Shown here piece by piece: positions 15,892 through 37,079 of a DNA stretch of 64,000 bases. Position 1 is the first letter of the stretch. Every line of letters begins with the position of its first letter. The position numbers were made by a program, and so were the translations under genes. Below the pieces are notes generated by a model. That model was not told the DNA's origin and did not search any database. It saw nothing but the letters and a program-made list of their open reading frames with translations. The stretch is from Actinophytocola sp. (GTDB taxonomy: Bacteria; Actinomycetota; Actinomycetes; Mycobacteriales; Pseudonocardiaceae), in contig NZ_DATBKY010000172.1 in the NCBI RefSeq assembly GCF_036555685.1, forward strand, positions 6,412-70,411, in the 5' to 3' direction.

Positions 15892-17373
15892 TCAGACGTG
15901 GCCGGCCGCCCAGCAGGCGGGGCCGTCGTGGCAGTTCGTCAGGCGCTCGAGAGCGGCATGGAGCCGGCCCAGCCGCGCCGAGCTCAGCGTCCCGGCCAGG
16001 TTGTGCAGCTCGGAGGGGTCGCGGGTGTGGTCGTAGTACTCGCGCGAGCCGTCGGCGTACTCGACGTAGGTGTACGCGTGCGTGCGCATCGCCGCGTACG
16101 TCGGCGGGTCGCCGCTGCCCGGTTCGGGGCGGTCGGGATCGTCGGGCCGGGTGCCGGGGCCGTGGTGTTCCACGAGGTTGGCCGTCCGCCAGCCGATGCC
16201 GGGCCAGCCGACCAGCAGCGGCAGCAGGCTATGTCCGTCCACTCGGGACGGTACGGGTGCGCCGGCGGCGCGCATGAAGGTCGGGGCGAGGTCGATGTTC
16301 GCGACGGCCGCGTGGCTCACCGAGTCCGGTGCCACGTTGGGTCCGGCCACCACGAGCGGCACCCTGATGTCGGTGTCGAACGCCGTCATCTTGCCGGGGG
16401 TCAGCCGGTACTCGCCCATGTGGTAGCCGTTGTCCGAGCTGAACACGATGTACGTGTTGTCCGCGACGCCCGCCTTCTCGAGGGTCGAGCGGAGGTTGGC
16501 GATGAGGTCGTCGACCGCCTGTACCGACTGTGCCCGCTTGCGGAAGGCGTGATCGATCGCGTCGCGCTCGCTCGCGGACAGCGGCCCGTAGCCGGCGAGC
16601 CACGGCGGTGCGTTCTGGGGCAGCGTGTCGTACGCCGGGCCGCGAGGCACGTCCAGGCCGGGGAAGTCGTCCTTGTGGCGCGGGGCCGGCGTGTACGGCG
16701 AGTGCGGTGCGAACGGGGCGACCTCGAGCAGGAACGGCTTGTGATCGCGGGCGGAGCGGGTGATGAAGTCGGAGCCCTTGCCGGCCAGGACGTCGGTGAG
16801 GTAGTCGGCCGGCTGGTGGCCGTAATGCACGACGTCGTGGTTCTGGTTGAGGTTGTACCAGTACTCCCAGTAGCCCGGCCCCGCGACGTCCCATTCGCTC
16901 CAGCCGGGCGGAACGTACGGTTCGGTGCCGCCCTCTCGGTGCGCGGGCATGTACTGGTTGAGGTACTTGCCCATCAGCGCGGTCCGGTATCCGTGGGCCC
17001 GCAGGGCGGCGGCGAAGGTCTCCGACTCCTCGCCGTGGTCGTGGAAGTAGTGGAAGCCGCCGTCCGCGCCGCCGTTCGTGTAGACGCCCGTGTCGTGCGG
17101 GAACCGGCCGGTGAGGATCGACGCCCGGGACGGGCAGCACAGCGAGTCGGTGACCACGTAGTCGGTGAACGTCGTGCCCTCGCCCTGCAGCTTGCGCACC
17201 TGCGGCAGGTACTTCACGAGGTTCCAGGACAGGTCGTCGGTCAGTACGAACACGATGTTCGGCCGCCCGGGGCCGGTCCCGCCGGCGACCGTCTGCGGCG
17301 CGGCGCCGGCCAGGCCGACCAGCACCACGATCACGCCGGCGACGAACGCGAGCCGGCGGCGAACACGTCCCAT
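15892..17373 (-). CDS. Secreted sulfatase (N-acetylglucosamine-6-sulfatase-like)
   Basis: Signal/anchor N-terminus, PNIVFVLTDD, CCPSRASILTG formylglycine motif, GKYLN, SSDNGYHMG. Confidence 0.92.
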   Translation of the reverse strand: MGRVRRRLAFVAGVIVVLVGLAGAAPQTVAGGTGPGRPNIVFVLTDDLSWNLVKYLPQVRKLQGEGTTFTDYVVTDSLCCPSRASILTGRFPHDTGVYTNGGADGGFHYFHDHGEESETFAAALRAHGYRTALMGKYLNQYMPAHREGGTEPYVPPGWSEWDVAGPGYWEYWYNLNQNHDVVHYGHQPADYLTDVLAGKGSDFITRSARDHKPFLLEVAPFAPHSPYTPAPRHKDDFPGLDVPRGPAYDTLPQNAPPWLAGYGPLSASERDAIDHAFRKRAQSVQAVDDLIANLRSTLEKAGVADNTYIVFSSDNGYHMGEYRLTPGKMTAFDTDIRVPLVVAGPNVAPDSVSHAAVANIDLAPTFMRAAGAPVPSRVDGHSLLPLLVGWPGIGWRTANLVEHHGPGTRPDDPDRPEPGSGDPPTYAAMRTHAYTYVEYADGSREYYDHTRDPSELHNLAGTLSSARLGRLHAALERLTNCHDGPACWAAGHV

Positions 17374-20877: not shown

Positions 20878-22428
20878 TCACGACGGCCGTCCCGCCGCAC
20901 GCGGGCCGGTCTCGCGCAGGGCGTTACGGTCGATCTTGCCGTTGACGTTCAGCGGCAGCGAGTCCCGATGGTTCAGCCGCCGCGGCACCATGTGGATCGG
21001 CAGGTACTCGCGCAGCCACCGGACGAGCTGCCGGCCGGGCTGCGGCGTGCCGGTGTAGAACGCGACCAGCTCCGGGCCGTCCGCGCCGCGCTCCGCGATC
21101 ACCACCGCCTGGGTCACGTCCGGGTGGCGGGCGATGGCGGCCTCCACCTCGCCCAGCTCCACCCGGTAGCCCCAGATCTTGAGCTGGTGGTCGAGCCGTG
21201 ACAGGTGGACGAGCTCACCGGCCTCCCACCGCACCCGGTCACCGGTGCGGTAGTAGAACTCCGGCCGCGGCGCGACACCGTCGGCCGGCACGTACCTGTC
21301 GCCCTCCCGGACCAGGAACCGGCCGGCGTCGTCGCGTGGATCCAGGTACCCGGCGAACCGCTGCGCCCCGCGCACGCACAGCTCGCCCTCCTGCGCCGCG
21401 AACCCGTCCTCGTCGACGATCACGTGGTCGAGATAGTCGTACACCGGTCCGATGGGGACGGTGTCGTTCGACGTCGCGGGCCAGCCGGCCGGGTCGGCGG
21501 GGAGGCGGTATTCCGTGCACGCCACGGTCAGCTCCGTGGGGCCGTACACGTTGTCGATGCGGGCGCCCGGCGCGACCGCGCGCCACGCCGCGGCCTGGGC
21601 CCGGGTGAGCTGCTCGCCGATGAAGATGCTCTGCCGCAGCACCGTGGACCGGCCGGTGGGCAGGTTGCCGAGGTTCGCGCTGACCGACACCACGGACGGC
21701 ACCGAGAACCAGTGCGTGATCGCCTTGTCCGCCAGGAAGTCCACCGGGCTGAGCAGGTCGGTCCGGCTCGGCGACACCAGCGTGGCGCCGCCGCCCCATG
21801 TGACGAACAGGTCGAACACCGACGGGTCGAAGGTGAAGTCGAACGTGTGCGACATCCGGCAGCCCGGGCCGACCTCGAAGCGCGCGATGTTGCGTGCCAC
21901 GAACGGCGACACGTTGCCGTGGCTGATCGGCACGCCCTTGGGTCGGCCCGTCGACCCGGAGGTGAACAGCACGTACGCCACGTCGTCGGCCGCGGCCGAC
22001 AACGCCGGTAGCGGGCCCGGCCGGGCGGCCAGCACGTCGGCGGCACCGAGCCGGACGACGGTGCCCGCCGCGCCGGCCAGGCCGTCCAGCTCGGCCACTC
22101 CGTCGTCGGCGAGCAGCACGTCGCAGTCGATCGAACCGCAGATGACCTCGTTGCGGCGCACCGGATGCGACGGGTTGAGCGGCACGACCGTGGCGCCGAG
22201 CCGCAGCGCGGCGAGGTAGCCGGCGAACGCCACGAGGCTGCGGCTCGCCAGCAACGCCACCCGGTCCGGTACCGAGCCCCGGGCGGCGAGGACGGTGCCG
22301 GCCACCGCCTCCGCGCAGCGGCGCAGCTCGCGGTAGGTCAGCACCTCCCCGTCGACCTCGAGCGCGACCGCCTCCGGGTGCCGCTCGGCGGATCGGGCGA
22401 ACCATTCGTAGAGCGTCCTCGACGTCAT
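20878..22428 (-). CDS. Stand-alone amino-acid adenylation (A) domain enzyme
   Basis: LTYREL (A1), FTSGSTGRPKG (A3), FDPS (A4), NVYGPTE (A5), YRTGD (A7), KIWGYRVELGEVE (A8), NGKIDR (A10); no carrier domain. Confidence 0.93.
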   Translation of the reverse strand: MTSRTLYEWFARSAERHPEAVALEVDGEVLTYRELRRCAEAVAGTVLAARGSVPDRVALLASRSLVAFAGYLAALRLGATVVPLNPSHPVRRNEVICGSIDCDVLLADDGVAELDGLAGAAGTVVRLGAADVLAARPGPLPALSAAADDVAYVLFTSGSTGRPKGVPISHGNVSPFVARNIARFEVGPGCRMSHTFDFTFDPSVFDLFVTWGGGATLVSPSRTDLLSPVDFLADKAITHWFSVPSVVSVSANLGNLPTGRSTVLRQSIFIGEQLTRAQAAAWRAVAPGARIDNVYGPTELTVACTEYRLPADPAGWPATSNDTVPIGPVYDYLDHVIVDEDGFAAQEGELCVRGAQRFAGYLDPRDDAGRFLVREGDRYVPADGVAPRPEFYYRTGDRVRWEAGELVHLSRLDHQLKIWGYRVELGEVEAAIARHPDVTQAVVIAERGADGPELVAFYTGTPQPGRQLVRWLREYLPIHMVPRRLNHRDSLPLNVNGKIDRNALRETGPRAAGRPS

Positions 22429-23496: not shown

Positions 23497-26400
23497 TCAG
23501 CTCTGCGTCGCGATCCGGAACAGCTCGCGGACCGGGGTGTCGGGCGCGGCCGCCGCCCGGGCGAGCACGGCGAGCAGGCCGGCCCGCCACCGCCGCACGG
23601 TCGCCTCGTCGAACAGCGCGGCGTCGTACTCCCAGCCGCCGGCGAGGCTGCCGTCCTGCTGGGGCAGCAGGGAGACCGCGCTCTCGTAGTGCAGGCCGAT
23701 CGGCGCGTACACCGGTCCGATCGGGGCGAAGTCGAACCCGTTGTCGCCGCCGACGAGCTCCATGTCGAACTCGCTCGTCCGGAACGCCCGGCCCGCCATC
23801 GGCGCGTTCTGTACGGAGAAGCAGGCCGCCAGCGCCGCGTCCGGGATCGCCAGCTCGGCACGCAACGTCTCGAACGGCACGGTCGGGCGGCCGAACGCGG
23901 CGGTGGTCACCTCGCGGGTGACACGCAGCAGGTCGGCGAACGTGGCCGCACCGGCCACCGGCACCCGGACCACGAGCCGGTTGACGAACCAGCCGACCAG
24001 CCGCTCCCAGTGCGACCGGACGCGCAACGCGTTCGGCGTGACGACGGCGATCTCGTCCGCGCCGGAGTGGGCGGCGAGGACCGCGGCGTGGGCGGCGAGG
24101 CCGGTCATGTACAGCGACGTGCCGCTGCGCTTGCCGAGCGCGTCCACCGCCGCGCCCAGCTTCCGGTCGACGACCAGGTCGAGGAAGCCGGGCCGGAACT
24201 CGTGGCCCGCGCGCTCGACCTCGGTGGGCAGCCCGATGCCGCCGAGCCCGCGCAGCTGGTCGCGCCACGCGGCCAGGTCCTCTCCGTAGCGCGGGCCGGC
24301 CCGGTACTCGCGGTGCCACTGGACGAACTCGGCATAGTCGCCCTCGATGGGCTTGAGGTCGGGCTCGGTGCCGTCGGCGTAGGCGTGGTAGGCGGTGCCG
24401 ATCTCGTGCAGCGTGATGCCGATGGACCAGCCGTCGATCGCGGTGTGGTGGACCGTCCACTGCACGACGTGGTCGTCCGGGCCGAGCCGGTGCACGCGGG
24501 CGCGGATCAGCGGGCCGGCGGCCAGGTCGAACGGGCGGGCGCCCTCCTCCCGGATGAGCCGGCGGACCGTGCGCTCGGGGTCCGGACCCGCCACATCGGA
24601 CACCTCGACCGGGATCTCGGTCAGGTCCAGCACGCGCTGGACGTATTCGTCGCCCTCGCGGTGCAGGGAGACCCGCAGCGGCGCGTGCCGGCGCACCAGC
24701 AGCGCGAAGGCCCGGCGCAGCGCGCCGAGGTCGAGCCGGCCGCGCATGCGTACCGCGAACGGGGCGTTGTACCAAGGGTCGTGGCCGTAGCCCTCGTCCG
24801 CGCGGAAGAGCGCCTCCTGCGGGAAGGACTGGGGCAGCACGGTTCCCGGCGTCATGCGCGGCACGGGCCGCTCGGCGTAGACCTGGTCCTGGCGCGCGCT
24901 CGCGCGCTCCCGTTCCCGTTCGACCAGCGTGGCCAGCCGGGCGACGGTCGGCTCGGCGAGGAAGTCGGCGAGCCCGATGTCGACGCCCAGCCGGTCCCGC
25001 ACCCGTGCGGTCACCTGGGTGGCCTGCAGCGAGTTGCCGCCCAGCTCGAAGAAGTCGGTCGACTTGTCCACAGTAGACAGCGAGAGCAGCGGCCCGAGGA
25101 CCTCGGTGGCGATGACGCGTTCCAGCTCGGTCCACTCCGTGTCCGTGGCCGTCGCCGCCGGTTCGGGCGGGGCCGGGAGCGCCCGGCGGTCGATCTTGCC
25201 GCTCGGGGTGCGGGGCAGCTCGGCCAGGACGGCGAGCCGGGTGGGAACCATGTAGTCGGGCAGCCGCGCGGCCGCGACCTCGCGGACCTCGTGGAGTGCC
25301 GGCTCCTCACCGGCGGGCACGACGTATGCGGTCAGGTGCCGGCCGGCGTCCGCGCCGTCCCACACCTCGACCGCGACCTGCCGCACCCGTGGGTCGGCGG
25401 CCAGCACCGACTCGACCTCGCCGAGCTCCACCCGGAACCCGCGGAGCTTGACCTGGCGGTCCACCCGGCCGAGGAACTCGAGTACGCCGAGCGACGACCG
25501 GCTGGCGGCGTCGGGCAGCGGCACCGGTGTCCACCGCGCCAGGTCGCCGGTGCGGTACAGCCGCGCGCCCGGTTCGTCGCCGAAGGGGTCGGGCACGAAC
25601 CGGTCGGCGGTGTGGCCGGGCCGGCCGAGGTAGCCGCGGGCGAGCCCGGCCCCGGCGATGCACAGCTCCCCCGGGACGCCCGCCGGCACCGGGCGCAGGT
25701 GCTCGTCGAGCACGTACGCGCGATGGTTGGGCATCGGCAGGCCGATCGGCGGGATCCGCCCGCCGGAGGGTGGCTCGCAGCGCATGAGGGTGACCGCGAC
25801 CGTGGTCTCGGCCGGGCCGTAGCCGTTCCAGAACTCGCGGCGCTCGGTGGCCCACTCGTCGACGAGCACGCCCGGTGGCGCCTCGCCGCCGACCGACACC
25901 AGTCGCAGGTGGGGCAGCGCGGCGGGGTCGAGCAGCGGCATCAGGCTCGGTGGCAGCTCGGCGGCGGTGACGCGCTGCTCGATCAGCAACCGCTGCAGCG
26001 CCTCGACCGAGAGGCGTTCCTCGTCGCCGGCCAGGACCAGCGTCGCGCCGGCACAGAGCGCCGACCACAGGTCGAACACGGACACGTCGAACGTGAGCGC
26101 GGCGAAGCCGAGCAGCCGGGTTTCCGGCCCGATCCCGTAGGCGGTCGCGATGTGCCGGGAGAAGTCGGCGACCGCGCGGTGCTCGACCAGGACGCCCTTC
26201 GGCCGGCCGGTGCTGCCCGATGTGTAGATGACGTAGGCGCCGCCGTCCGGCCGTGCGGTCATCGCATCGACCGGCCGCGCCGCCGTCGATTCCGGCTCCA
26301 GCACGGGAGTCCCGTCCGGGAACCGGTCCGCCAGGTCGGCCGTCGTGACCACTATGGACACTCCGGCGTCGGCGCACAGGTACGCGATGCGGGCCGGCGG

Positions 26401-29400
26401 ATACTTCGGGTCGACGGGCACGTACGCGGCGCCGGCCATCATGATGCCGAGCGGCGCCCACACCGTCGCGGCGGTGCGCGGCAGGCATACCGCGACCCGG
26501 TCCTCCGGGCCGACGCCTCGCTCGCGGAGCTCGGCCGCCAGCCCGGCTGCCCGGTCGAGCAGCTGCCGGTAGGTCAGCTCGCCGTCGGTCGCGACGAGCG
26601 CGGTCGCGTCGGGGTCCTGCTGGACGACCAGGCCGGGAATCGTGGCGGGTGGGTCGTTGAGCAGGCCGCCGTCGCCCGCGCGCAGCAGCTCGGCCCGCTC
26701 CTCGCCGGTGACCAGGTCGGCGGCGTCGATGGGCCGGCCCGGCTCGGCGCGGTCGAGTGAGACGGCGAGGGCGGTACGCCGGATCAGCGCGGTCACGGTG
26801 TGCTCGGTGATCGCCCGCCCGTCGAACACGGCGGTGATCTCGGTGCCGCCGTCGGGTGCGGGCGCGATGTCGAGGCCCACGGTGGCGGCCGCGTGCGGCG
26901 CGAGCCGGCCGGCTCGGTCGTGCACGGCGACGCTGACGAGCGGGTCCTCGGCGAGCATCGAGCGCAGCTTGGACCATGGCACGTCGGCGTTGCGCCGGGC
27001 GGCCTCGAGCGCCTCGGTGGCGGCGTCGGTCAGTCCCGCACCGATCGCGACCCGGACCGGCAGCATCCGGCAGAAGGGCCCGGGCACGCCGTCGAGGTCG
27101 GGGGGCAGGACCGGGCGGGTGACCACGCCGAGGACGACGTCGTCGTCGCGCCCGCAGCGGCCGAGCACGAGCGCGAGGGCGGCGAGCCAGCGCCTCGTCG
27201 TGGCGGTCTCCGCCACGGTGAGGCTGGCCTGTCCACGGGCGGGCGCGCCGGGCGCCACGCGGTCGGCGGGGATGCCCGAGGCCGGGGCGCCGCGAAGGGT
27301 GGTCTTCCAGTACGCCTCCTGCCGTTCCCGCTCGGCGGTGCGCCGCGGATCGACCTGCCAGGCCGCGTAGTCGTCGTAGGTGAGCGTCGTGGCGCCAGCC
27401 GGCTTGTCCATTGTGGACTCGACCCACGGTCGCAACGCCTCGGCCTCGGCGTAGAACTCCTGCTGCACCGACCGAGGTACCCGACCGCGGACCCGCCCCG
27501 GCCGGATGGGCGGGACGGCCCGCTGCGCCGCCCGCAGCCCGGCGAGGAACCCGGTGCGCCGCGGCTCGGGCCACGCGGCGAGGCGGTCCGCGAGCGGCCG
27601 GGACTCGACGTGCTCGCGCCCGGGGTCGGCCCCGATCAGCGCGGGGACGTCGACATGCCCGCTCGCGGACCGCGGCAGCTCGGCGATCTGCCGGACGTCC
27701 GCGGGCAGCAGAGCGCTGGGCACGCGCTGGCGCAGCCGGTTGAGCGACGCGGCCACGTCGACGCCGCGCCCGCCGGCACCGGCGACCCAGGCCCGCTCCC
27801 CCAGGACGACGGCCGCCGCGATGGCATCGTCGCGTTCGAGCTGCGCGGCCACCCAGAGATCCTCGCCACCGGGCCGATCGCCCAGCCGCTCGAGCGTGCC
27901 ATCGCCCCGGCGACGCGCCCGGACTCCGGTACGAACGTCGCCGTCCGCACCGGTGACGACCAGTTCCCCGGCCACGGCATCGGGCACCGGCCGACCGGCC
28001 GGGTCGGCAAGCCAGCCACCCGGAACCGCTCCGAAGTCCTGCTGCCCCGGCGGAACGCAGGCGTACACGCCGCCGGTGGCAGCCGTACCGAACACACGCC
28101 ACGCGCCCGGCACGGCGGGGCCGGCGACCACACCGCCATCGCGCGGGCCAGGCGCGAGCGGGTCGCGGAACTCCGGCGACGCGCCGGCGGCCAACGCGGC
28201 CAGCGCCACCGGCAGCAACGCCGGGTCGTCAGCGCCCAAGGCGAGCACGGCAGGCGAGCCCGGCTCGAACGGCAGCGCGCTCGCCGCCGCCACTGCCTCG
28301 GCCAAGGTCCGGGCCGACGCACCTCGCCAGCGGCCGGATGGCTCATCGGGTGGCGGGGCGTCGGCCGACAGTGCCAGGTGGACGACGGAAACCGGTGGGG
28401 GCACGGCGAACGACGTACCGTCCGGGACGACGAGCACCGCCGCGTCACGGCAGCGTGCGGCCAGCTCGGTGGCCGACGCGTCCAGCGGGACCTGCTCGAC
28501 GTCCGCGCCGAGTGAGAGGGCACCGAGCGCGGCGGCGAGCAGGTCCGGCGACGCGGGTAGGCGGAGCAGCACCCGGTCGCCGGCGCGTACGCCCGCCGCC
28601 CGCAGCTGGGCAGCGGCCGCGCCCGCCGGGGCGTATGCGGGTAGCGGTGCGACCGGGCGCGGCGGCACGGGCTCCACGTCGGCGGGCGCCACCAGCGGGA
28701 TGTCGCTCAACCGCTGGTCGTCCGGTGCGGAGGCCAGCTCCTTTAGCAGCCGTCCGTAGCGGTCGGCGAGCCACTCGGCGACCGGGCGGTCGATGCGGTG
28801 CTCGTCGTACTCCACCCGGACCCAGATCGAATCCGTCGGCAGGGCGACCGACACCACCAGCGGCAGGCCGGTCTGCTCCTGCTGGCGCAGCGCGCGGACG
28901 GTGACCGTGCCGGTCGACTCGGCGGTGTCCGATTCGGACAGGAAGTAGTTCTGGAAGCCCAGCACGCTCTCGTACAGCGGCTCCCCCATCGGCACCGCGC
29001 TGCACCGCTGCGCCGCGGCCACCGGGATGTGCTCGAACGCGCGGCCGGCGATCAGCTGTTCCTGTACCGCGGCGAGCCACGGGCCGACCGGCAGCTCACC
29101 GTCGACGGCGACGCGCACCGGGACCGTGTTGACGAACATGCCCACCCGCTCGGTCACGCCGGGCAGCTCCGCGGGGCGGCCGGACACGGTCGTGCCGAAA
29201 ACCGCGTCGGGGGTGCCCGCGCACCGCGACAGCAGCAGGCCCCACGCGGCGTGGGCGATCGTGCTGGGCAACACCCCCGGCCGGCGGGCCAGGACACCGG
29301 GCACGAAGCGCTCGATCCGGCCGGCCGGTCCGGCCTCGGCGCTGACCCGTCCCACCCGGTCGACGCCGAGCGGGGTGGGGTGCCGCAGGTCGCCGAGCAG

Positions 29401-30003
29401 CCGCTTGAAATGCGCGTTCGCCGCCTCGGTGGTGTCGTGGTCGCGCAGCCACGTCACGAACTCGCGGAACGGCGCGGCCGGGGGCAGCGCCGCCGCCCGC
29501 CCCTCCTGCCGGGCGGCGATCAGCTCGGCCAGGTCCTCCTGCACGGTCGGCATGCTCCAGCCGTCGAGCACGAGGTGGTGTGCCGTCGTGACGAGCCGCC
29601 ACTCGGCCTCGCCCACCCGCAGCGCGTGCGCCCGCAGCAGCGGTGGCCGGCGCATGTCGAACGGCGTCGCCCACTGGGCGGCCAGTGCGGCCCGCACCGC
29701 GGCGTCCACATCGCTACCGCGGGCGTCGGTGACCTCGAGGCGCAGCGGCGCTTCGGCGAACACGACCTGTACCGGGTTCTCGACGCCCTCCCAGACGAAC
29801 CCGGTGCGCAGCACGGTGTGCCGGGACACGAGGTCGTCCAGGCCCTGCCGCAGCGCCACCTCGTCCGGTACACCGGTGACGCCGAGGACGAACTGCTGCT
29901 GGTACACCGGACGGTCCGCGGTCCGCAGCGCGTGCACGAGCATGCCCTGCTGCATCGCGGTCAGCGGGTAGATGTCGCGCACCCGGCGCTTGGTCCCGGC
30001 CAT
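23497..30003 (-). CDS. NRPS: C - A(degenerate) - C(truncated) - A - T - C (about 2168 aa)
   Basis: C1 DIYPLTAMQQGML and HHLVLDG (~29570); eroded A-like region ~28660-27640 with no SGSTG and GHVD in place of GKVD; C-terminal half of a C domain; intact A (YTSGSTGRPKG, GYGPAE, SGKID); T GGNSL (~25030); terminal C with HHTAIDG (~24440). Confidence 0.9.
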   Translation of the reverse strand: MAGTKRRVRDIYPLTAMQQGMLVHALRTADRPVYQQQFVLGVTGVPDEVALRQGLDDLVSRHTVLRTGFVWEGVENPVQVVFAEAPLRLEVTDARGSDVDAAVRAALAAQWATPFDMRRPPLLRAHALRVGEAEWRLVTTAHHLVLDGWSMPTVQEDLAELIAARQEGRAAALPPAAPFREFVTWLRDHDTTEAANAHFKRLLGDLRHPTPLGVDRVGRVSAEAGPAGRIERFVPGVLARRPGVLPSTIAHAAWGLLLSRCAGTPDAVFGTTVSGRPAELPGVTERVGMFVNTVPVRVAVDGELPVGPWLAAVQEQLIAGRAFEHIPVAAAQRCSAVPMGEPLYESVLGFQNYFLSESDTAESTGTVTVRALRQQEQTGLPLVVSVALPTDSIWVRVEYDEHRIDRPVAEWLADRYGRLLKELASAPDDQRLSDIPLVAPADVEPVPPRPVAPLPAYAPAGAAAAQLRAAGVRAGDRVLLRLPASPDLLAAALGALSLGADVEQVPLDASATELAARCRDAAVLVVPDGTSFAVPPPVSVVHLALSADAPPPDEPSGRWRGASARTLAEAVAAASALPFEPGSPAVLALGADDPALLPVALAALAAGASPEFRDPLAPGPRDGGVVAGPAVPGAWRVFGTAATGGVYACVPPGQQDFGAVPGGWLADPAGRPVPDAVAGELVVTGADGDVRTGVRARRRGDGTLERLGDRPGGEDLWVAAQLERDDAIAAAVVLGERAWVAGAGGRGVDVAASLNRLRQRVPSALLPADVRQIAELPRSASGHVDVPALIGADPGREHVESRPLADRLAAWPEPRRTGFLAGLRAAQRAVPPIRPGRVRGRVPRSVQQEFYAEAEALRPWVESTMDKPAGATTLTYDDYAAWQVDPRRTAERERQEAYWKTTLRGAPASGIPADRVAPGAPARGQASLTVAETATTRRWLAALALVLGRCGRDDDVVLGVVTRPVLPPDLDGVPGPFCRMLPVRVAIGAGLTDAATEALEAARRNADVPWSKLRSMLAEDPLVSVAVHDRAGRLAPHAAATVGLDIAPAPDGGTEITAVFDGRAITEHTVTALIRRTALAVSLDRAEPGRPIDAADLVTGEERAELLRAGDGGLLNDPPATIPGLVVQQDPDATALVATDGELTYRQLLDRAAGLAAELRERGVGPEDRVAVCLPRTAATVWAPLGIMMAGAAYVPVDPKYPPARIAYLCADAGVSIVVTTADLADRFPDGTPVLEPESTAARPVDAMTARPDGGAYVIYTSGSTGRPKGVLVEHRAVADFSRHIATAYGIGPETRLLGFAALTFDVSVFDLWSALCAGATLVLAGDEERLSVEALQRLLIEQRVTAAELPPSLMPLLDPAALPHLRLVSVGGEAPPGVLVDEWATERREFWNGYGPAETTVAVTLMRCEPPSGGRIPPIGLPMPNHRAYVLDEHLRPVPAGVPGELCIAGAGLARGYLGRPGHTADRFVPDPFGDEPGARLYRTGDLARWTPVPLPDAASRSSLGVLEFLGRVDRQVKLRGFRVELGEVESVLAADPRVRQVAVEVWDGADAGRHLTAYVVPAGEEPALHEVREVAAARLPDYMVPTRLAVLAELPRTPSGKIDRRALPAPPEPAATATDTEWTELERVIATEVLGPLLSLSTVDKSTDFFELGGNSLQATQVTARVRDRLGVDIGLADFLAEPTVARLATLVERERERASARQDQVYAERPVPRMTPGTVLPQSFPQEALFRADEGYGHDPWYNAPFAVRMRGRLDLGALRRAFALLVRRHAPLRVSLHREGDEYVQRVLDLTEIPVEVSDVAGPDPERTVRRLIREEGARPFDLAAGPLIRARVHRLGPDDHVVQWTVHHTAIDGWSIGITLHEIGTAYHAYADGTEPDLKPIEGDYAEFVQWHREYRAGPRYGEDLAAWRDQLRGLGGIGLPTEVERAGHEFRPGFLDLVVDRKLGAAVDALGKRSGTSLYMTGLAAHAAVLAAHSGADEIAVVTPNALRVRSHWERLVGWFVNRLVVRVPVAGAATFADLLRVTREVTTAAFGRPTVPFETLRAELAIPDAALAACFSVQNAPMAGRAFRTSEFDMELVGGDNGFDFAPIGPVYAPIGLHYESAVSLLPQQDGSLAGGWEYDAALFDEATVRRWRAGLLAVLARAAAAPDTPVRELFRIATQS

Positions 30004-31319
30004 CAGGCCCCCTCCCCGGCCGGCTCCGCCGGCTCGGCCGGTCCGACCCGGCGCACCGGCGAGAACCACACGAGCAGCGGCGCGACCGCGAGGACCACGA
30101 CCGCTGCGAACAGCGCCTCGCGCGGGCCGATCGCGGCGCCCAGCAAGCCGCCGAGCAGCGCGCCGAGCGGCCAGAGTCCCACGGTGAGGAACCGGAACGA
30201 GCCCATCACCCGGCCCTGCAGGTCATCCGGAGTGGACCGTTGGAACAGGCTCTCCACGTTGATCGCGGACACCGCACCGCTCGCCGACATCAGGAACGCC
30301 GCGACGATCAGCATCGGCAGCGCCGCCCCGATGAACGCCGGCGTCAGCGGGATCAGCAGGGTGGACAGGCAGAACCCGGCGAGGCCGGTGCAGATCGCAC
30401 CGCCGACCCCGATCCGGCGCGCGATCGGGCCGGCGGCGAGCGCGCCGACCAGCGCGCCGGGGCCGGTGCCGATCAGCGTGAGGCCGACCAGCGCGGTCGG
30501 CAGGTCCAGCACCGAGACGACATAGATGACGTACAAGGTGGTCTCCGCGGACCACGCCACGTTGCTGATCGCGATCGCCCGCATCAGCGGCCCCAGCACG
30601 GCGTGGCGGGCGAGGAAGCGCAGCCCCTCGAGCAGGTCGTCCCACGCCCGGCGTACCCCGCGCGCACCGTCGGCAGCCTGCCGCGCCGGCTCGGGTTCGC
30701 GGTACTTGATGCGGCCGAGCGTGAACACGGACGCGAGCAGGGACAGGCCGTCCAGGATCACGGCGATCGGCGCGGTGACCGCCTGCACCAGCAGGCCGCC
30801 GATGGTCGGTCCGGTCAGCTGTGCGGTGGCCCGGGCCGACTCCATCCGGCTGTTGGCCTCGATCAGGTGCTCGCGGCCGACCAGGCCCGGCAGGTAGCTC
30901 ATGTACGCGGTGTCGAACCAGACCGTGAGCACCGCGGAGATCAGCAGCGTCGCCCCGAGCAGGCCGATCGAGAGGATCCCGAGCGCGAACTCGACCGGGA
31001 TCATCAGCAGCAGCGCGGCGCGCACGAGGTTCGTGATGATCAGCGTCGGCCGCTTGCGCATGCGGTCGACCCAGATCCCGGCCACGAGGTAGAGCACCGC
31101 GGGCAGCTTGCTCAGCAGGCCCAGCACGCCCAGCTCGTCGGCGCCCGCGTTCAGCGTCTCGATCGCGAGCAGCGGCACCACGATCGTGCTCACGTAGGCG
31201 CCGAACTGGGAGAACGTCTGGCCTGTCCACAGCTTCACGAAGTCGCGGTTGTGCCAGACGGGTGCGGAGAACGGCCGCCACCGGCGGGCGGTTCGGGTCG
31301 TTCCGGTCTTCTCGGCCAC
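30003..31319 (-). CDS. MFS exporter (EntS/macrolide-efflux-like) embedded in the NRPS operon
   Basis: RDFVKLWTGQTFSQFG, WVDRMRKR, QGRVMG; its TGA overlaps the NRPS ATG (TGATG at 30005-30001). Confidence 0.9.
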   Translation of the reverse strand: MAEKTGTTRTARRWRPFSAPVWHNRDFVKLWTGQTFSQFGAYVSTIVVPLLAIETLNAGADELGVLGLLSKLPAVLYLVAGIWVDRMRKRPTLIITNLVRAALLLMIPVEFALGILSIGLLGATLLISAVLTVWFDTAYMSYLPGLVGREHLIEANSRMESARATAQLTGPTIGGLLVQAVTAPIAVILDGLSLLASVFTLGRIKYREPEPARQAADGARGVRRAWDDLLEGLRFLARHAVLGPLMRAIAISNVAWSAETTLYVIYVVSVLDLPTALVGLTLIGTGPGALVGALAAGPIARRIGVGGAICTGLAGFCLSTLLIPLTPAFIGAALPMLIVAAFLMSASGAVSAINVESLFQRSTPDDLQGRVMGSFRFLTVGLWPLGALLGGLLGAAIGPREALFAAVVVLAVAPLLVWFSPVRRVGPAEPAEPAGEGA

Positions 31320-31321
31320 GG

Positions 31322-33340
31322 TCAGCCCACCCCCGCCTCGGCGCGCAGCACGGCGGGTGCCGCGTCGCCCGCGATCGCCACGGGCGCCGCCAGGTAGTGC
31401 CGGCGCACCGGCGATCCGTCGGTCATGCCGAACGCACCGTGCAGGTGGACGGCCTCGCGGCTGGCGTCCAGCGCCAGCGCGCCCGCCTCGGCGAGCACCC
31501 CGGCGGCGAGCGCGGGATCCGGTCCGCCGTCGTCGAACCGCCCGGCCAGGTCGGTGACGAGCGCGGTGAGCGCGTGCAGCCGGACGGCGAGGCGGGCGAG
31601 CCGGAACGCGATGTCCTGGTTGGCGATCAGCGCCCGGCCGAACTGCTCGCGGGTGCGCGCCCGATGGACGGTGTGCGTCAGGCAGCCGCCCGCGAGGCCG
31701 AGCAGCCACGCGGCACGGCGCACCCGCCCGGCGGCGAGCACCTCGGTGCCGTCGGCGAGCACGTCCGCGGCCGCCGCCGGACCGTCGACGGCCCACACCC
31801 GGCCGGTGGCCGTCTGATGTGGACGGAACGGCAAGCCGGTGGCGAGCGCGAGCGCCGGCCCGTCCTGAACGGCCACCACGGCGTCGGCCGAACCGGGGTC
31901 GGCGACGACGGGGCGGTCGGGCTGGCGGAGGTCGGCGAGCACGGCGCGCCAACTGCCGTCCAGCGGGGGCAGCTCGCGACCGGCCCGCACGAGCGCGTCG
32001 ATCGCGGTGAGGGTGTCGAGGATGCCGTCGTCGTGCAGGCCGCGGCCCAGCTCCGCGCAGCAGATCACGGCCGCGCGCAGGCCGAGGTCCAGCCCGCCGC
32101 GCTCGGCCGGCACGGTCAGCCCGAACACCCCGAGCCGGGCCAGCTCCGGCCAGCACGCGCCGGCGGGGTCGCGCTCGTCGTACGCGCCGGCCACGGCCCG
32201 GCACGCCGCGCGCAGCTCGGCGGCCAGCGGCTCGTCGGCGTCGGGCAGCGGCAGGCCGGAGGAGGCGACCAGCTCCAGCATCATCTCCGAGGTGCCGGCG
32301 GACAGGGTCAGTCCGGGCGCCTCGCGGTAGGCGGACTCGAGCACGCCCGGCTGCCGCAGCGCCGCGGGCCCGGCCGTCTCGGCACACCACCACGCGACCG
32401 ACCGGGCGGTCTCGGCGCACCACAGCTTGGTCGCGGCCGCGGCGACCGCGTCCACCCGGCCGGTGTCGAGCTGGTCGACGCAGCGCTCCGCGAGTGCGCG
32501 GCCGGCCGCCGTGTGCGTGCGCAGGCGGCCGTACTCCGCCGCCTGCTCGCTCGCCGGGTGCACGGCGCGCAGCCACCGGTCGGCCTTGGCCACGTAGTCG
32601 ACCCCGGTGCGCTCCAGCGCGAGCGCCTCGGTGATCAGCGGCCACGCGCCGCCGACCGGGCCGATCACCGCGGTGGCCGCTACCTCGACGCCGTCGAGCC
32701 GCACGTCCGCGAAGTCGTCGTCGGCGAGGGAAGCCAGCCGGCCGATCGTGATGCCGGGCAGGTCCAGCGGGACCAGGAACAGCGTGATGCCGCGGTAGGG
32801 CGTGGCCTCGACGCTGGTCCGCGCCGCGACCAGGCCGTAGTCGGCCAGGGCGGTGCCCACGCTGTAGACCTTGTGGCCGCTGATGCGCCAGCCGTCCCCG
32901 GCCCGTGTCGCCGTGGCTTCCAATGTGGACAGATCGGAGCCGACGCCGGGCTCGGAGTAGAGCACGGTCGCGGTCCGCCGGCCGGCGGCGAGGCCGGGGA
33001 GCACGGCGGCGCGCTGTTCGGGTGTGCCGGCGGTCAGCAGGAAGTTGCCGCAGATCTGGACGGACAGGGTGTGCAACACCTCGGGCACCCCACCGGCGAT
33101 GAGCTCGCCGACGACCGCGGCGGCGCAGCGGGCGGGCAGGGCGCGTCCGCCGTAGGCCCGCGGCCACGAGACCGCGAGCAGCCGCTGCTCGCCCAGCAAG
33201 CGGTAGAGCGGCCGCGGGTCGGGCTCGGTCCCCGCCCGACGCGCCTCGGTCACGGCCGCCAAGGCGTCGCGTGCCGCCGGGCCGGCGAGCACCGCGCGGA
33301 CCTCCTTGGCCGCGAGCTCCGCCTCGGGGTCGGTTGTCAC
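31322..33340 (-). CDS. Fused tandem acyl-CoA dehydrogenase-like flavoenzyme (672 aa)
   Basis: N-terminal ACAD (WPRAYGG, SEPGVGSDL, ISGHKVY, ALER, AGTSEMM) followed by a shorter second ACAD-like unit (REQFGRAL, HLHGAFGM); GTGA overlap with the upstream NRPS stop. Confidence 0.85.
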   Translation of the reverse strand: MTTDPEAELAAKEVRAVLAGPAARDALAAVTEARRAGTEPDPRPLYRLLGEQRLLAVSWPRAYGGRALPARCAAAVVGELIAGGVPEVLHTLSVQICGNFLLTAGTPEQRAAVLPGLAAGRRTATVLYSEPGVGSDLSTLEATATRAGDGWRISGHKVYSVGTALADYGLVAARTSVEATPYRGITLFLVPLDLPGITIGRLASLADDDFADVRLDGVEVAATAVIGPVGGAWPLITEALALERTGVDYVAKADRWLRAVHPASEQAAEYGRLRTHTAAGRALAERCVDQLDTGRVDAVAAAATKLWCAETARSVAWWCAETAGPAALRQPGVLESAYREAPGLTLSAGTSEMMLELVASSGLPLPDADEPLAAELRAACRAVAGAYDERDPAGACWPELARLGVFGLTVPAERGGLDLGLRAAVICCAELGRGLHDDGILDTLTAIDALVRAGRELPPLDGSWRAVLADLRQPDRPVVADPGSADAVVAVQDGPALALATGLPFRPHQTATGRVWAVDGPAAAADVLADGTEVLAAGRVRRAAWLLGLAGGCLTHTVHRARTREQFGRALIANQDIAFRLARLAVRLHALTALVTDLAGRFDDGGPDPALAAGVLAEAGALALDASREAVHLHGAFGMTDGSPVRRHYLAAPVAIAGDAAPAVLRAEAGVG

Positions 33341-36300
33341 TGCGCCGCCTCCGGGTCCAGGTCCGCCAGGCCGGCGAGCAGGCCGGCGACCGCCACGTCG
33401 TCGAGGCCCGCGTCCGGGAAGTCGGCCGCGGAGTACACGGTCTCGGCCGTCGCGCAGTGCGCCACGAGCCGGACCAGGTGGTCTCGCACCTGCTCGGCCA
33501 GGCCGTCGGCGCCGGTGACGATCAGGCGGGGACCCGCCAGCGTCACGAGCGTCCGGGGCCCCGCGTCGCCGATCGCGGTCACCTCGGCGGCGTCCGGCAC
33601 GGGCAGGACCCGCACGCCAGGCACGGCCGGGTCGTCGTCCTCGGCTGCCCGGAACGCCTCCTTTACCGCGCGGATCAGCTCGGCGTCACCGCGCACCCGG
33701 CCGACCCGCAGCAGCCCAGGCTCGGCGCGGCCGTCCGCGGAAGGCTCGGCGCGCCGCGTGTCGGCGACCGCGACGGCCGGCTCGCCCGTCGCCGCGATGG
33801 TCGCGGCGATGACGAGGTCGGTGGTCGTGGTGGCGTACGCCTCGTGGGCCGGGCCGGCCAGCGCGGCCACCGTCTCCGGCGGCACGAGCACGCCGAGCCC
33901 GGCCGTCTCGTGTGGACCGTCCGGGCAGAGCCCACGCACGAGCCGGCCCAGCGTCCAGTCGTCTACATGGGACGGATCGGCGGTCAGCCGGCGGCCGTCG
34001 ACGGTGACGCCGGGTACCGTCGGCGTCTCGGCCGCGGGAGCCGGCAGGCGGATCACGGTCGGGCCGGCGATGCCGAGGGGCGCCGACCGCTCGACCGGTT
34101 CCGCCGCGTCGAGCGCCTGGGCGAGCGCGCGGATCGTACGCAGGTCGAGGATCTGCCGGACGGTCAGCTCGAGCCCGTGCCGGCGGGCCTCGGCGACCGC
34201 GTGGATGGCGAGGATCGAGTCGCCGCCGATGTCGAAGAAGTCGTCGGTGACGCCGAAGTCGCCCGCCGGGAGCAGCCACTCCCAGCCTTCCAGCAGGGTC
34301 TCCTCGGTCGGCGTGGCGGGATCCTCCGGTGCCTCCCGGGCAATCGGTGCGGCCGCCGGGTCGTCGCTGACCTCGGCCACCTCGCCGGTCCGACCACAGA
34401 GGACCAGCGTGCCGTCGGGCCGGAGGCGTGCCAGGTCCCCGGTCCGGAAGCGGCGCGCACCGCCCGCGTCCGGCACGAACGCGGCGGCCGTCGCGCCGGG
34501 TGCGGCGGGATACCCGCGGGTGACGCGCGGCCCGCCGACGTGCAGCTCGCCCCGGCAGCCCGACGGCACCGGACGGCCCCACCGGTCCAGCACGGACAGC
34601 CGAACCCCGGGCAGCGGCCGGAGGGGCTCGTCGAGCCGGCCGGCGGCAACGGGCCCCGCGGGGTCGTACAGGGTGACCGCGTCCCAGCCCGCGTCCCGCA
34701 GCCGGGACCGCAAGACGGGTTCGACCTGCTCGCCCGCCAGGACGGCGGCCCGGCGGGGCCGCAACGCCGCGGCGTCGCCGACCGCGAGCATGGCCGCGAG
34801 GTGCGACGGCGTCGTGGTCAGGAAGTCGACCGGATGCGCCGCGAGGAACGAGCCGAGCTCCTGCGGATCGAGCGCGGTCGCCTCGTCGACGACGTGCAGC
34901 GCGCCGCCCCCGGCCAGCGCGCAGAGCACCGGCGTCAGCGACGAGTCGACGGTCGGCGGCTGCACCAGCAGGTGGCTCGCCCCGGCCGGCAGCTCGGCGA
35001 GCAGGCCACGCACCATCGACACGAGGTTGCGATGCGTGAACAGCACGCCGTCGTCGAGCATCAGGCACGCGCCGTTGTCCGGCCGCGCCACCGGGCCGGG
35101 CGGGCCCGGATCCGGCACCGCCGCCACGTCGATCGGCAGCACCTGCACCGAGGCGGGCAAGGCGACGTCGGCGAACGGGAGCGCCAGCGCCAGCCGGGCA
35201 CCGCACCGCGCGGCGACGGCGGACAACTCCGCCGCGGTCTCCCCCGGATCGACCGGCACGCACACCCCACCCGCCTTCAGCACCCCGAGCAGTGCCACCG
35301 CGTACTCGGCGGACCGCGTCAGCGCGACCAGGACCGGGGTTTCCGGACCGGCGCCGTGCGAGCGCAGGCCGTGCGCGACCCGGTTCGCCGCGGCGTCGAG
35401 GCCGGCGAAGGAAAGCGACCCGCCCACCCACACGACCGCCGGTGCGTCGGGCGTGGCCGCCGCCCGCTGCGAGACCAGCTCGTGCAGCAGCGTGTCCTCG
35501 ACAACGGGCGCGGGCACGGCAGGCTCGTCCCACAACGCGTCGAACGTCCATACGGGACGATCCGGCGCGGCGAGGCCGGCGCGCAGCAGGCGCGGGAACA
35601 CCTCGCACACCAGAGCGGCCGCGGCGGGGTCGACCACGTCCGGCCGGTACCGCACGCTCCCGGTGTAGGGCGTGGGCTCGGACTCCAGATCCAGCCACAG
35701 GTCGTGGGTGACGGTGCCCGTGTCGATCAGCGAGGCGTCGACCGCCCGCGGCATGCGGCCCGCCGGCAACCGCGGCGGCGCCGGTGGCTTCAGGTTGATC
35801 GCGGCCTGCGCCAGCGGCGTCACACCCGCCGCCCGCTCGGGCGCCACCGCCGCCACGATCTGGTCGAACGCGACCGAGCCGTGGTCGTGCGCCTCGCCGA
35901 CCACCCGCCGCGCCGCCCGCACGAGCTCGCGGAACGTCGGCCCGCCGGAGAGGTCGAGCCGCAGCACCACCTGGTCGACGAACATGCCGATGACGTCGCG
36001 CAGCTCCGGCAGCGGCCGCCCGGCGACCGGGCTCGCGACCGCGACGTCCGCGCCGCCGAAGACCCGGCCGAGCGTGGCCGCGTACGCCGCGAGCATGCCC
36101 ATGAACGCGGTGGCCCGCTCCGCCCGGACGAACTCGTCGAGGGCCGCCGCGGTGGCGGGCTCGATGGCGAAGTCCAGCCGGCGGCCGCGCTGCGACACCC
36201 GCTCGGGCCGCGGCCTGCCGTGCGTGAGATCCACTGTGGACAGGTCGGCCAGCTGCCCCCGCCAGTAGTCCAGGTCCTGCCGCGCGACCGGCTCGGCGGA

Positions 36301-36852
36301 TCGCTCTTCCTGCCAGGCCGTGAAGTCGGCGTACTGCACCGGCAGCTCCGCCCAGTCCGGCGCCTGGCCGGAGAGCCGCCGCTCGTAGGCCACGGTGAGG
36401 TCGCGGATGAAGATCTCGGCGGAGATGGCGTCCGCGATCGCGTGGTGCAGCACCACGACCAGGCCGTCGGTGTCCGCGCCGAGCCGGACGTGCGTCATGC
36501 GCCACAGCGGGGCGCGGCCGAGGTCGAACACCTCCGTGCCGACCCGCGCGCACAGCTCGAGGTAGGCGGACTCGGAGTCGTCGCTCAGGTCGGCGAACCC
36601 CACGGTCACGGCCTCCGGCACCGCCTCGACGACCTGCCACAAGCTGTTGTCCCGCACCGTGAACCGGGTGCGCAGCGACTCGTGCCTGCCGACCACGTCC
36701 GCCACCGCCGCCCGCAGCACCGCGGGGTCGAACCGGCCGGCGTAGCGGCGTTCGAAGCTGATGTTGTGCACCGGCTCGTCCGGCACCAGCTGCTCGACGA
36801 ACCAGAGCTGCTGCTGGGCCCGCGACGCCCGGACGGTCAGGACATCGCTCAC
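33337..36852 (-). CDS. NRPS: C - A(degenerate) - T - E(degenerate) (about 1171 aa)
   Basis: C with HHAIADA (~36440); A lacks the TSGSTG loop (GACLMLDDGVLFTH), has YDPAG for YGPTE and lacks the A8-A10 subdomain; T GGDSI (~34217); short E-like tail (EAYATTTTDLVIA, VKEAFRA, SAADFPDAGL). Start re-picked at GTG 36852. Confidence 0.85.
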   Translation of the reverse strand: MSDVLTVRASRAQQQLWFVEQLVPDEPVHNISFERRYAGRFDPAVLRAAVADVVGRHESLRTRFTVRDNSLWQVVEAVPEAVTVGFADLSDDSESAYLELCARVGTEVFDLGRAPLWRMTHVRLGADTDGLVVVLHHAIADAISAEIFIRDLTVAYERRLSGQAPDWAELPVQYADFTAWQEERSAEPVARQDLDYWRGQLADLSTVDLTHGRPRPERVSQRGRRLDFAIEPATAAALDEFVRAERATAFMGMLAAYAATLGRVFGGADVAVASPVAGRPLPELRDVIGMFVDQVVLRLDLSGGPTFRELVRAARRVVGEAHDHGSVAFDQIVAAVAPERAAGVTPLAQAAINLKPPAPPRLPAGRMPRAVDASLIDTGTVTHDLWLDLESEPTPYTGSVRYRPDVVDPAAAALVCEVFPRLLRAGLAAPDRPVWTFDALWDEPAVPAPVVEDTLLHELVSQRAAATPDAPAVVWVGGSLSFAGLDAAANRVAHGLRSHGAGPETPVLVALTRSAEYAVALLGVLKAGGVCVPVDPGETAAELSAVAARCGARLALALPFADVALPASVQVLPIDVAAVPDPGPPGPVARPDNGACLMLDDGVLFTHRNLVSMVRGLLAELPAGASHLLVQPPTVDSSLTPVLCALAGGGALHVVDEATALDPQELGSFLAAHPVDFLTTTPSHLAAMLAVGDAAALRPRRAAVLAGEQVEPVLRSRLRDAGWDAVTLYDPAGPVAAGRLDEPLRPLPGVRLSVLDRWGRPVPSGCRGELHVGGPRVTRGYPAAPGATAAAFVPDAGGARRFRTGDLARLRPDGTLVLCGRTGEVAEVSDDPAAAPIAREAPEDPATPTEETLLEGWEWLLPAGDFGVTDDFFDIGGDSILAIHAVAEARRHGLELTVRQILDLRTIRALAQALDAAEPVERSAPLGIAGPTVIRLPAPAAETPTVPGVTVDGRRLTADPSHVDDWTLGRLVRGLCPDGPHETAGLGVLVPPETVAALAGPAHEAYATTTTDLVIAATIAATGEPAVAVADTRRAEPSADGRAEPGLLRVGRVRGDAELIRAVKEAFRAAEDDDPAVPGVRVLPVPDAAEVTAIGDAGPRTLVTLAGPRLIVTGADGLAEQVRDHLVRLVAHCATAETVYSAADFPDAGLDDVAVAGLLAGLADLDPEAAQ

Positions 36853-37079
36853 CGCGACCCGGCCTCCGGTTCCATCGCGCGGCGCAAGCTCTTCGGGCGC
36901 ATGTCCGTCCAGACCTGGTCGATGTGGGCGAGGCACTCGTCGCGGCCGCCGGTGAACCCGGTCGGCCGCCAGCCGGCGGGCGGGTCCTGGTCCGCCGCCC
37001 AGACCGAGTACTGCTCCTCGTCGTTCACCACGACCTGGAAGGTCTCCATTGCTGCTCCCGCTGCTCCGGTCATGATCAT
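36849..37079 (-). CDS. mbtH: MbtH-like protein
   Basis: VVVNDEEQYSVW...PAGW...CLAHIDQVWTDMRPKSL; CAGGAG RBS; overlaps both neighbours (ATGA/GTGA). Confidence 0.95.
   Translation of the reverse strand: MIMTGAAGAAMETFQVVVNDEEQYSVWAADQDPPAGWRPTGFTGGRDECLAHIDQVWTDMRPKSLRRAMEPEAGSR

Follow-up and report, generated by a model that had tools for sequence, protein, structure and literature searches.

Working nonribosomal peptide synthetases (NRPSs) that contain a degenerate adenylation (A) domain are already known, as are catalytically dead domains with the condensation (C) fold. In kutzneride biosynthesis in Kutzneria (KtzH and KtzN), KtzH reportedly carries a truncated A domain, A*, whose live carrier (T) domain is said to be loaded in trans. 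The ferrichrome synthetase Sib1 of Schizosaccharomyces pombe and related fungal siderophore NRPSs contain a degenerate A domain (dA) whose job is covered by other A domains (PMC2644324), and module 2 of Dol15D (dolastatin 15) retains an inactive A domain, Ax, in which motifs A1-A10 are kept and only A3 is partly lost, beside an embedded replacement ligase, and for which a structural role has been proposed from AlphaFold models (PMC13643306). The X domain of glycopeptide NRPSs (4tx2, 4tx3) and the interface-type C domains show the condensation fold without its catalytic histidines; X domains are full-length, two-lobed and of proven recruiting role. The docking-domain classes of NRPS subunits have been reviewed (PMC9113145), and the XUC units (C_Asub-A-T-C_Dsub) and C-A platform used by engineers have been described together with the relevant structures (6ozv, 5t3d, 2vsq; bioRxiv 10.1101/2021.08.23.457306). 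Here we analyze a window of 64,000 nucleotides (the whole stretch of DNA under study, from contig NZ_DATBKY010000172.1 of Actinophytocola sp., Pseudonocardiaceae, an uncultured actinomycete from soil) whose largest NRPS, a protein of 2168 amino acids (aa), contains a fossil module between an intact C domain (C1) and the live A domain. This relic consists of a dead A domain (also called A* hereafter), no T domain, one helix and half a C domain (C*).

The relic resembles Sib1 dA in that an embedded A domain short of several core motifs lies in frame in a working multimodular NRPS. The dA module, however, keeps its own T and C domains, which are used iteratively, whereas in the relic the T domain is gone and the next C domain is halved; unlike Sib1, moreover, the relic is bacterial and has a deletion series among its relatives. 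With Dol15D Ax it shares the retention of an inactive A domain inside a module, but A* has lost every catalytic motif as well as about 150 aa, and its module contains no replacement domain. A shrunken, dead A domain in an NRPS of the Pseudonocardiaceae, encoded in an operon with a stand-alone A domain, recalls KtzH as well; no T domain follows A* in the relic, and the KtzH-type arrangement would better fit the neighbouring NRPS at 33337-37143. The surviving set of C-terminal C lobe, linker, A and T is exactly the one regarded as inseparable in engineering and structural work (XUC units, C-A platform), and the break falls in the linker that joins the two lobes of C, which is the boundary used by engineers. 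XUC is nonetheless an engineering rule in which the N-lobe comes from another C domain, while C* has no N-lobe and stands alone; its single lobe likewise separates it from the X and interface-type domains. Finally, the helix resembles the N-terminal docking or leader helices of NRPS subunits (..RLAxLPxxxRxxFLxxLR.., about 20 residues, followed by the C-domain core motif C1), except that it is internal, some 800 residues into the protein. What differs from these systems is that a dead A domain, a missing T domain, the leader of a subunit now embedded in the protein and a solitary C-terminal lobe occur in combination, with a break exactly at the engineers' lobe boundary and further natural deletions in relatives. 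The locus clearly captures decay of an already known type in the course of evolution, and no new mechanism is involved.

Pfam returned two fragments for the relic, a weak AMP-binding match (profile positions 31-97, 36.7 bits, aa ~482-548) and a Condensation match confined to profile positions 171-339 of 456 (43.7 bits, aa ~895-1040), and no PP-binding (carrier) match between aa 470 and 1124. Profile-profile alignment with hhalign, based on 19 homologues, placed the relic colinearly on the live A-T-C2 of the family (probability 99.7%, E=7e-26, 27% identity), and the fate of each core motif was read through this alignment. The A3 P-loop is YTSGSTGRPKG in the live module and PSGRWRGASAR (aa 577-587) in the relic, A4 has gone from FDVS to DPAL, A5 from NGYGPAE to RVFGTAA and A7 from YRTGD to VRTGV, with loss of the Asp; the A8 hinge is deleted, and the A10 Lys is replaced by His (SGHVD, aa 803-807, window 27649-27663) at a position where no homologue has Lys. 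A* spans about 337 aa, as against 487 aa in the live A domain, and has none of the A3 P-loop, A7 Asp, A8 hinge and A10 Lys of a competent ANL adenylation domain. The carrier core GGxS falls in an alignment gap; only about 55 residues separate the A10 position of A* from core motif C1, where a carrier would be expected, and neither the GGxS serine nor the four-helix bundle is found there. In the C-domain part, core motif C1 is present but diverged and motifs C2 and C3 (HHxxxDG) fall in a gap, so that C* has neither the HHxxxDG motif nor the two-lobed fold of a catalytic condensation domain. The motifs of its C-terminal lobe, C4-C7, are diverged but retained (YDDYAAW, GPFCRMLPVR, NADVPW, LVSVAVHD), and many of their residues are invariant in the 19 sequences. 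A preliminary description of the sequence, which placed the relic at 26700-28660 (aa 470-1124), had noted a shrunken A domain without SGSTG and with GHVD for GKVD, a missing carrier motif and a C domain devoid of the HHxxxDG lobe, all of which is borne out here. The strings it quoted, including RPLADRLAAWPEPRRTGFLAGLR (aa 824-846, 27532-27600), RSVQQE (aa 866-871) and TYDDYAAWQ (aa 897-905), are all present in the minus-strand open reading frame (ORF) 23497-30069, on which aa positions are counted throughout.

The phase of the G+C content at third codon positions (GC3) in a frame plot identifies the minus strand as the coding strand for 23500-30100, and rules out a plus-strand reading of the gene; the G+C content of the window is ~75%. 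Within the translated ORF, the start codon is likely the ATG at 30003, which yields the 2168 aa. The same ATG and the stop codon of the major facilitator superfamily (MFS) gene upstream overlap (ATGA), as they do in the homologous locus L002, and the homologue cluster representative P0002 begins at the same Met. The 2168-codon frame contains zero stops or frameshifts, in agreement with the preliminary description. An artefact, be it a misassembled contig or a nonfunctional cluster in decay, is an extremely improbable explanation of the relic. The window does come from a metagenome assembly, and GC3 is lowered in the A* core of the present lineage, which would suit a dead gene. Nevertheless, the stretch 26400-28900 is covered by a 3704-nucleotide Logan contig, assembled from one run of a soil metagenome, that differs from it by 4 substitutions and 0 gaps, and the same layout is common to ~20 independently assembled homologues, from separate assemblies and from isolates, which together rule out misassembly; against a dead gene stand the open frame and a ratio of nonsynonymous to synonymous substitution rates (dN/dS) of ~0.23 in the live domains.

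The ~20 homologues that carry the same wreck include metagenome-assembled genomes of Actinophytocola, a Kutzneria sp. and Amycolatopsis taiwanensis. The family alignment comprises 19 of them, and counts among close relatives refer to 16. More than half of the A* core is deleted in 6 of the 16: its N-terminal half is gone in P0012 and P0013, and nearly all of it in P0014-17, of which P0014 measures 1885 aa. These deletions are nested, independent and in frame, and the A* core is, to judge from the six relatives that have lost it, dispensable. In more distant members (P0019-21 and P0028), A* is longer yet just as dead, and 70-100 aa of an N-lobe without the histidines persist; ~130 aa of the dead C N-lobe remain in P0043, and P0035 has also lost the start of the C4 region. 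By contrast with the A* core, deletion was never seen in the A* C-terminal subdomain (A*sub), the helix, the IRPGR..PRSVQQEFY linker or the C* lobe (0-6% gaps). Gaps in the family alignment amount to 6% in A*sub, which is kept in 19/19, and 3% in C*, with none in the helix segment or the C*-A linker, and several residues that never vary over the 19 sequences fall in A*sub, the helix and C*. One relative (P0009) carries between C1 and A* an insert of 190 aa, of low complexity and internally repetitive (..VPADDxSxDRLRAAGSLST..), and the C1-A* junction hence tolerates big insertions. The proposal that the remnant acts as a long spacer needs correction in the light of these data, as its length is not what is conserved and 6/16 close relatives do without most of the A* core. 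Neither the alignment nor the profile search detected a carrier domain at the relic position in any family member, and the loss of T is therefore older than the family. Undecayed or unfused relatives were likewise absent from the profile search, which covered 1.84 billion representatives; about eight family representatives among the matches listed were all T-less, and the remainder of that list consisted of giant generic NRPSs. A scan of genome contigs with a generic C4 motif yielded mostly unrelated C domains and one extra member (L004), and is uninformative on taxonomic spread.

Mean pairwise identity in the family is 0.75 in C1, 0.79-0.81 in the live A domain and 0.72 in C2, and falls to 0.58-0.64 in the A* core, 0.54 in A*sub and 0.63 in the helix, while C*, at 0.67, lies near the live C domains. 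Values of dN/dS, obtained by the Nei-Gojobori method (NG86) against two homologues with available DNA and rough at a GC3 of ~0.95, are 0.21-0.25 in C1 and 0.23-0.26 in the live A domain, compared with 0.18-0.32 in the A* core, 0.26-0.34 in the helix and 0.29-0.42 in C*; relative to live domains, dN in A* is ~2x higher, but so is dS. Since dN/dS stays at 0.18-0.42 throughout, the relic is not neutral, and a neutral spacer for the whole stretch is ruled out. Codons ending in A or T make up 41/254 in the A* core versus 105/1936 elsewhere in the gene (Fisher p=2e-8), and include the GTT, GGA, GGT and CTT codons at 28011-28056 to which the preliminary description had drawn attention. The excess reported there is consequently real, but it is limited to the A* core, with a GC3 of 0.84 as compared to 0.94-0.97 elsewhere, and does not extend to C*, where GC3 is normal (0.94). 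The dip is largely specific to the present lineage, being small in homologues (0.88-0.91 versus 0.90-0.94). Relaxed selection, proposed on those grounds, holds in part and for the A* core only: its amino-acid composition has drifted (Gly, Ala, Arg and Pro, 54% versus 37-42%; Phe, Tyr, Met, Ile, Asn and Lys, 2% versus 9-13%), whereas its dN/dS is like that of live domains. C* and the C*-A linker, for their part, appear to be kept under purifying selection.

An AlphaFold model of aa 456-1640 (mean predicted local distance difference test, pLDDT, 77; predicted template-modelling score, pTM, 0.56) gives A* an A-like secondary structure at pLDDT 80-93, places C* in the same confidence range, and predicts a helix at aa 826-851 with lower confidence. 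On this model A* would be a pseudo-domain that still folds, as opposed to a loose spacer under no selection. As to a full A-domain fold (core plus C-terminal subdomain), Pfam matches a fragment only and ~150 aa are missing, hhalign to the live A domain is colinear, and the predicted secondary structure is A-like. The A domain is dead, as the preliminary description had it, but the long spacer inferred there is predicted to contain a folded body. In a Foldseek search with this model the dimodular LgrA ranked first, colinear as A-T-C-A. The modelled C*-A superposes on the Txo1 C-A crystal structures at 4.6-4.9 Å over ~710 columns, and in this model C* rests against the live A domain as in the canonical C:A platform. 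A second model, of aa 23-1148 (mean pLDDT 71), superposes C1-A* only loosely on C-A didomains (~10 Å), and the X domain is found among its fold matches.

The identity of the embedded helix was addressed with a comparison set of 147 unrelated NRPSs from the profile search. The pattern RLAxLPxxxRxxFL followed by core motif C1, searched as a regular expression, occurs at 6/44 N-termini but matches, poorly, only 2 of 408 internal C starts. A hidden Markov model (HMM) of the helix found its top two matches in the 147 NRPSs at N-termini (P0111, residues 12-38, 14.2 bits, independent E-value 2e-4; P0108, residues 7-30). Conversely, when 22 full-length proteins of the family were searched with an HMM of 12 leaders, the 12 best matches all fell on the fossil helix. 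Run on the segment alone, the leader HMM reached 6.6-18 bits and the T-region HMM of the family at most 3.6 bits, and a T-domain remnant was rejected as the identity of the helix on this score. The spacing between helix and core motif C1 also agrees with that of N-terminal leaders. The likeness to the leaders of C-starting NRPSs noted in the preliminary description is hence reciprocal, and supports, at modest scores, the view that the helix is a leader such as C-starting subunits have at their N-terminus, now at an internal position (aa 824-851). No solved structure, the PAX pair included, matches the leader by sequence, and its class is not assignable; nor was a conserved C-terminal docking tail able to bind the helix found, the tails of the first NRPS not being conserved.

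The reading that we favour, and hold to be moderately probable, is that the relic marks a former module boundary left by the fusion of two genes, that the half C domain supports the live A domain and that C1 serves the T domain of the live module, designated T4 in the preliminary description. An upstream C1-A subunit, originally ending in T, would have been joined as one polypeptide to a downstream subunit made of a short helical leader and C-A-T-C, with one deletion removing the T domain together with the gene junction. The upstream A domain would then have lost its catalytic motifs and been whittled by lineage-specific in-frame deletions, leaving a remnant that still folds, and the downstream C domain, left without a donor carrier, would have been stripped of the N-terminal lobe with its catalytic HHxxxDG motif. 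Fusion with loss of T, already put forward in the preliminary description, is the better-supported reading because the leader profile beats the T profile on the helix, although that support amounts to a short motif with modest scores. The alternative that a single C-A-T-C-A-T-C protein decayed in place, losing A activity, T and the N-lobe of the next C domain without any fusion, and that the helix is a rearranged remnant of T or of the T-C linker, seems unlikely. It would account for the colinearity of the relic with A-T-C, hhalign aligns the helix in part with helices 1 and 4 of T, at low confidence, and the T profile of the family does register on the segment, if weakly (0.5-3.6 bits). The leader profile, however, scores clearly above it on the same segment, the leader motif is nearly absent from internal C starts, and its spacing is that of N-terminal leaders. 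Several observations do weigh against the favoured reading. None of the other C-starting subunits of the operon has an N-terminal leader, which is also what decay in place would lead one to expect; and, with every family representative T-less and no unfused or T-bearing relative found, the case for fusion has to be built on a short, modest-scoring helix match. The low inter-domain confidence of the models (pTM 0.47-0.56) bears on the proposed C*:A support, for which canonical packing is weak evidence because AlphaFold was trained on C-A structures. Furthermore, a dN/dS in A* as low as in live domains and a confident predicted fold represent excess constraint for a mere relic, even if NG86 estimates are rough at this GC3 and dS is doubled in A*.

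Such constraint is what would be expected if A*-helix-C* were a conserved scaffold with a new, noncatalytic job, either positioning C1 relative to T or recruiting a partner encoded in the operon, for which the MbtH-like protein, the stand-alone A domain, the acyl-CoA-dehydrogenase-like enzyme and the diiron oxidase would be candidates, by analogy with X and interface domains. Low dN/dS in the A* core and helix, confident predicted folds of both A* and C*, invariant residues in A*sub, helix and C*, and the conservation of several trans-acting enzymes in the operon would all fit such a scaffold. We regard it as decidedly improbable, given that the A* core is mostly gone in 6/16 close relatives, that P0009 tolerates its 190-aa insert, that the composition of A* has drifted, and that the other subunits show no conservation of their C-terminal tails as docking partners. 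Equally doubtful is the narrower idea that A*sub-helix-C* has been kept on purpose as a rigid adaptor, holding C1 and the carrier at a given distance and orientation to each other, or that the helix still docks a subunit or tailoring enzyme; if so, the locus would hold a natural internal docking site made by gene fusion.

The intact catalytic set of the protein consists of C1, A, T and C2 only (Table 1), and the protein would be expected to act as a single elongation module followed by a terminal C domain. C1, the sole upstream condensation domain that is intact, would take the chain from the preceding subunit, whose epimerase-type C-terminal end (..YSAADFPDAGLDD..) would match the DIYPLTxMQQGML start of C1, and would join it to the amino acid loaded by the live A domain on the single T domain. 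Since C1 would condense the chain with an aminoacyl group held on that single T domain, T would have to reach C1 past the relic. The live A domain would sit on a structural platform made of the C-terminal lobe and the C-A linker. The residues of the C-A interface all lie in the C-terminal subdomain of C (bioRxiv 10.1101/2021.08.23.457306), and it seems plausible that C* and its linker have been kept because this lobe carries the interface; the same source cites Meyer 2016 for an influence of the interface on A-domain behaviour. The suggestion in the preliminary description that the half C domain may stabilise the live A domain fits its conservation, the lack of indels and the modelled canonical packing on the A core. 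The live A domain itself matches Pfam AMP-binding (296 bits) and AMP-binding_C, and TIGR01733 (442 bits). Between A7 and A8 it has a 13-residue insert, TPVPLPDAASRSSLG (~25500-25545, minus strand; aa ~1512-1526), which is missing from most homologues and has low AlphaFold confidence; in P0003 this insert is tandemly duplicated (SMLDPASRSSVSMLDPASRSSV).

Table 1. Features of the relic-bearing NRPS gene; window positions, with aa counted on the minus-strand ORF 23497-30069.
Feature	aa	Window position	Strand	Evidence
NRPS gene, C1-A*-leader-C*-A-T-C2		23497..30003	minus	stop at 23497-23499; GC3 frame plot, translation, Pfam
C1, intact condensation domain	31-455	28705..29979	minus	Pfam Condensation 210 bits; HHLVLDG aa 164-170
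A* core, dead and shrunken	482-735	27865..28626	minus	A3/A4/A5/A7 destroyed, A8 deleted; weak Pfam AMP-binding fragment
A* C-terminal subdomain remnant (A*sub)	736-818	27616..27864	minus	A10 Lys replaced (SGHVD)
Leader-like helix, linker (IRPGR..) and core motif C1 (VPRSVQQEFY)	819-875	27445..27615	minus	reciprocal HMM matches
Deletion scar, former C N-terminal lobe (motifs C2, C3/HHxxxDG)	876-896	27382..27444	minus	hhalign gap versus live C2
C*, C-terminal (acceptor-side) lobe	897-1110	26740..27381	minus	Pfam Condensation positions 171-339; C4-C7 diverged
C*-A linker	1111-1148	26626..26739	minus	gap-free in family alignment; within C-A didomain superposition
Live adenylation domain	1149-1635	25165..26625	minus	YTSGSTG at 1282, SGKIDR at 1623
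Carrier (T) domain	1650-1725	24895..25122	minus	Pfam PP-binding (match aa 1663-1716); GGNSL at 1677
C2, terminal condensation domain	1745-2184	23518..24837	minus	Pfam Condensation; HHTAIDG at 1874

The operon is syntenic in the window and three further loci, and comprises, in order, an A-T-C-T NRPS, MbtH, a C-A*-T-x NRPS, a fused acyl-CoA-dehydrogenase-like gene, an MFS gene, the relic NRPS, a haem-oxygenase-like oxidase and a stand-alone A. Together with the dN/dS of the live domains, this synteny indicates that the pathway is under selection. Amycolatopsis taiwanensis and Kutzneria sp. NPDC052558 are culturable strains with the operon. The first NRPS (37076-40558, minus strand) has a second carrier (..NFFDLGGTSMDL..) in its last ~110 aa, without an A domain of its own and followed by a nonconserved basic tail. 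The MbtH-like gene (METFQVVVNDEEQYSVWAADQDPPAGWRPTGF..., ~36849-37050, minus strand) lies between the first and second NRPSs, inside longer overlapping ORFs. In the second NRPS (33337-37143, minus strand) the A domain before T is also a partial AMP-binding match, its best stretch covering profile positions 3-100, which brings the number of dead A domains in the operon to two, beside a single stand-alone A (20878-22428). The MFS transporter gene occupies 30003-~31290 on the minus strand, between the acyl-CoA-dehydrogenase-like gene and the relic NRPS, and reads in a different frame from the ORF 30223-31281, which explains why the latter has no Pfam match. The locus of a distant relative (L003, on a contig of GCA_038329965.1) has at 1-1626 on the minus strand the start of a polyketide synthase-like gene with a ketosynthase-type N-terminus and at 16469-17278 a sulfotransferase; these flank the operon in place of the oxidase, the stand-alone A and the A-T-C-T NRPS, and the cluster periphery therefore differs between clades.

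The locus and its relatives would thus offer a view of how an NRPS module is lost stepwise in nature: genes fuse and the carrier is lost, the A domain dies, the next C domain sheds its catalytic lobe, and deletions in frame proceed piecemeal. The pieces that are never removed in this family are the C-terminal lobe of C, its linker and the A domain, and their persistence lends independent support to the engineering rule by which C-lobe, A and T are treated as a single unit that can safely be cut at the lobe boundary. The natural minimal variants that have arisen in the process (e.g. the relatives of 1885 and 1942 aa) might, in turn, serve as templates for the trimming of NRPSs.

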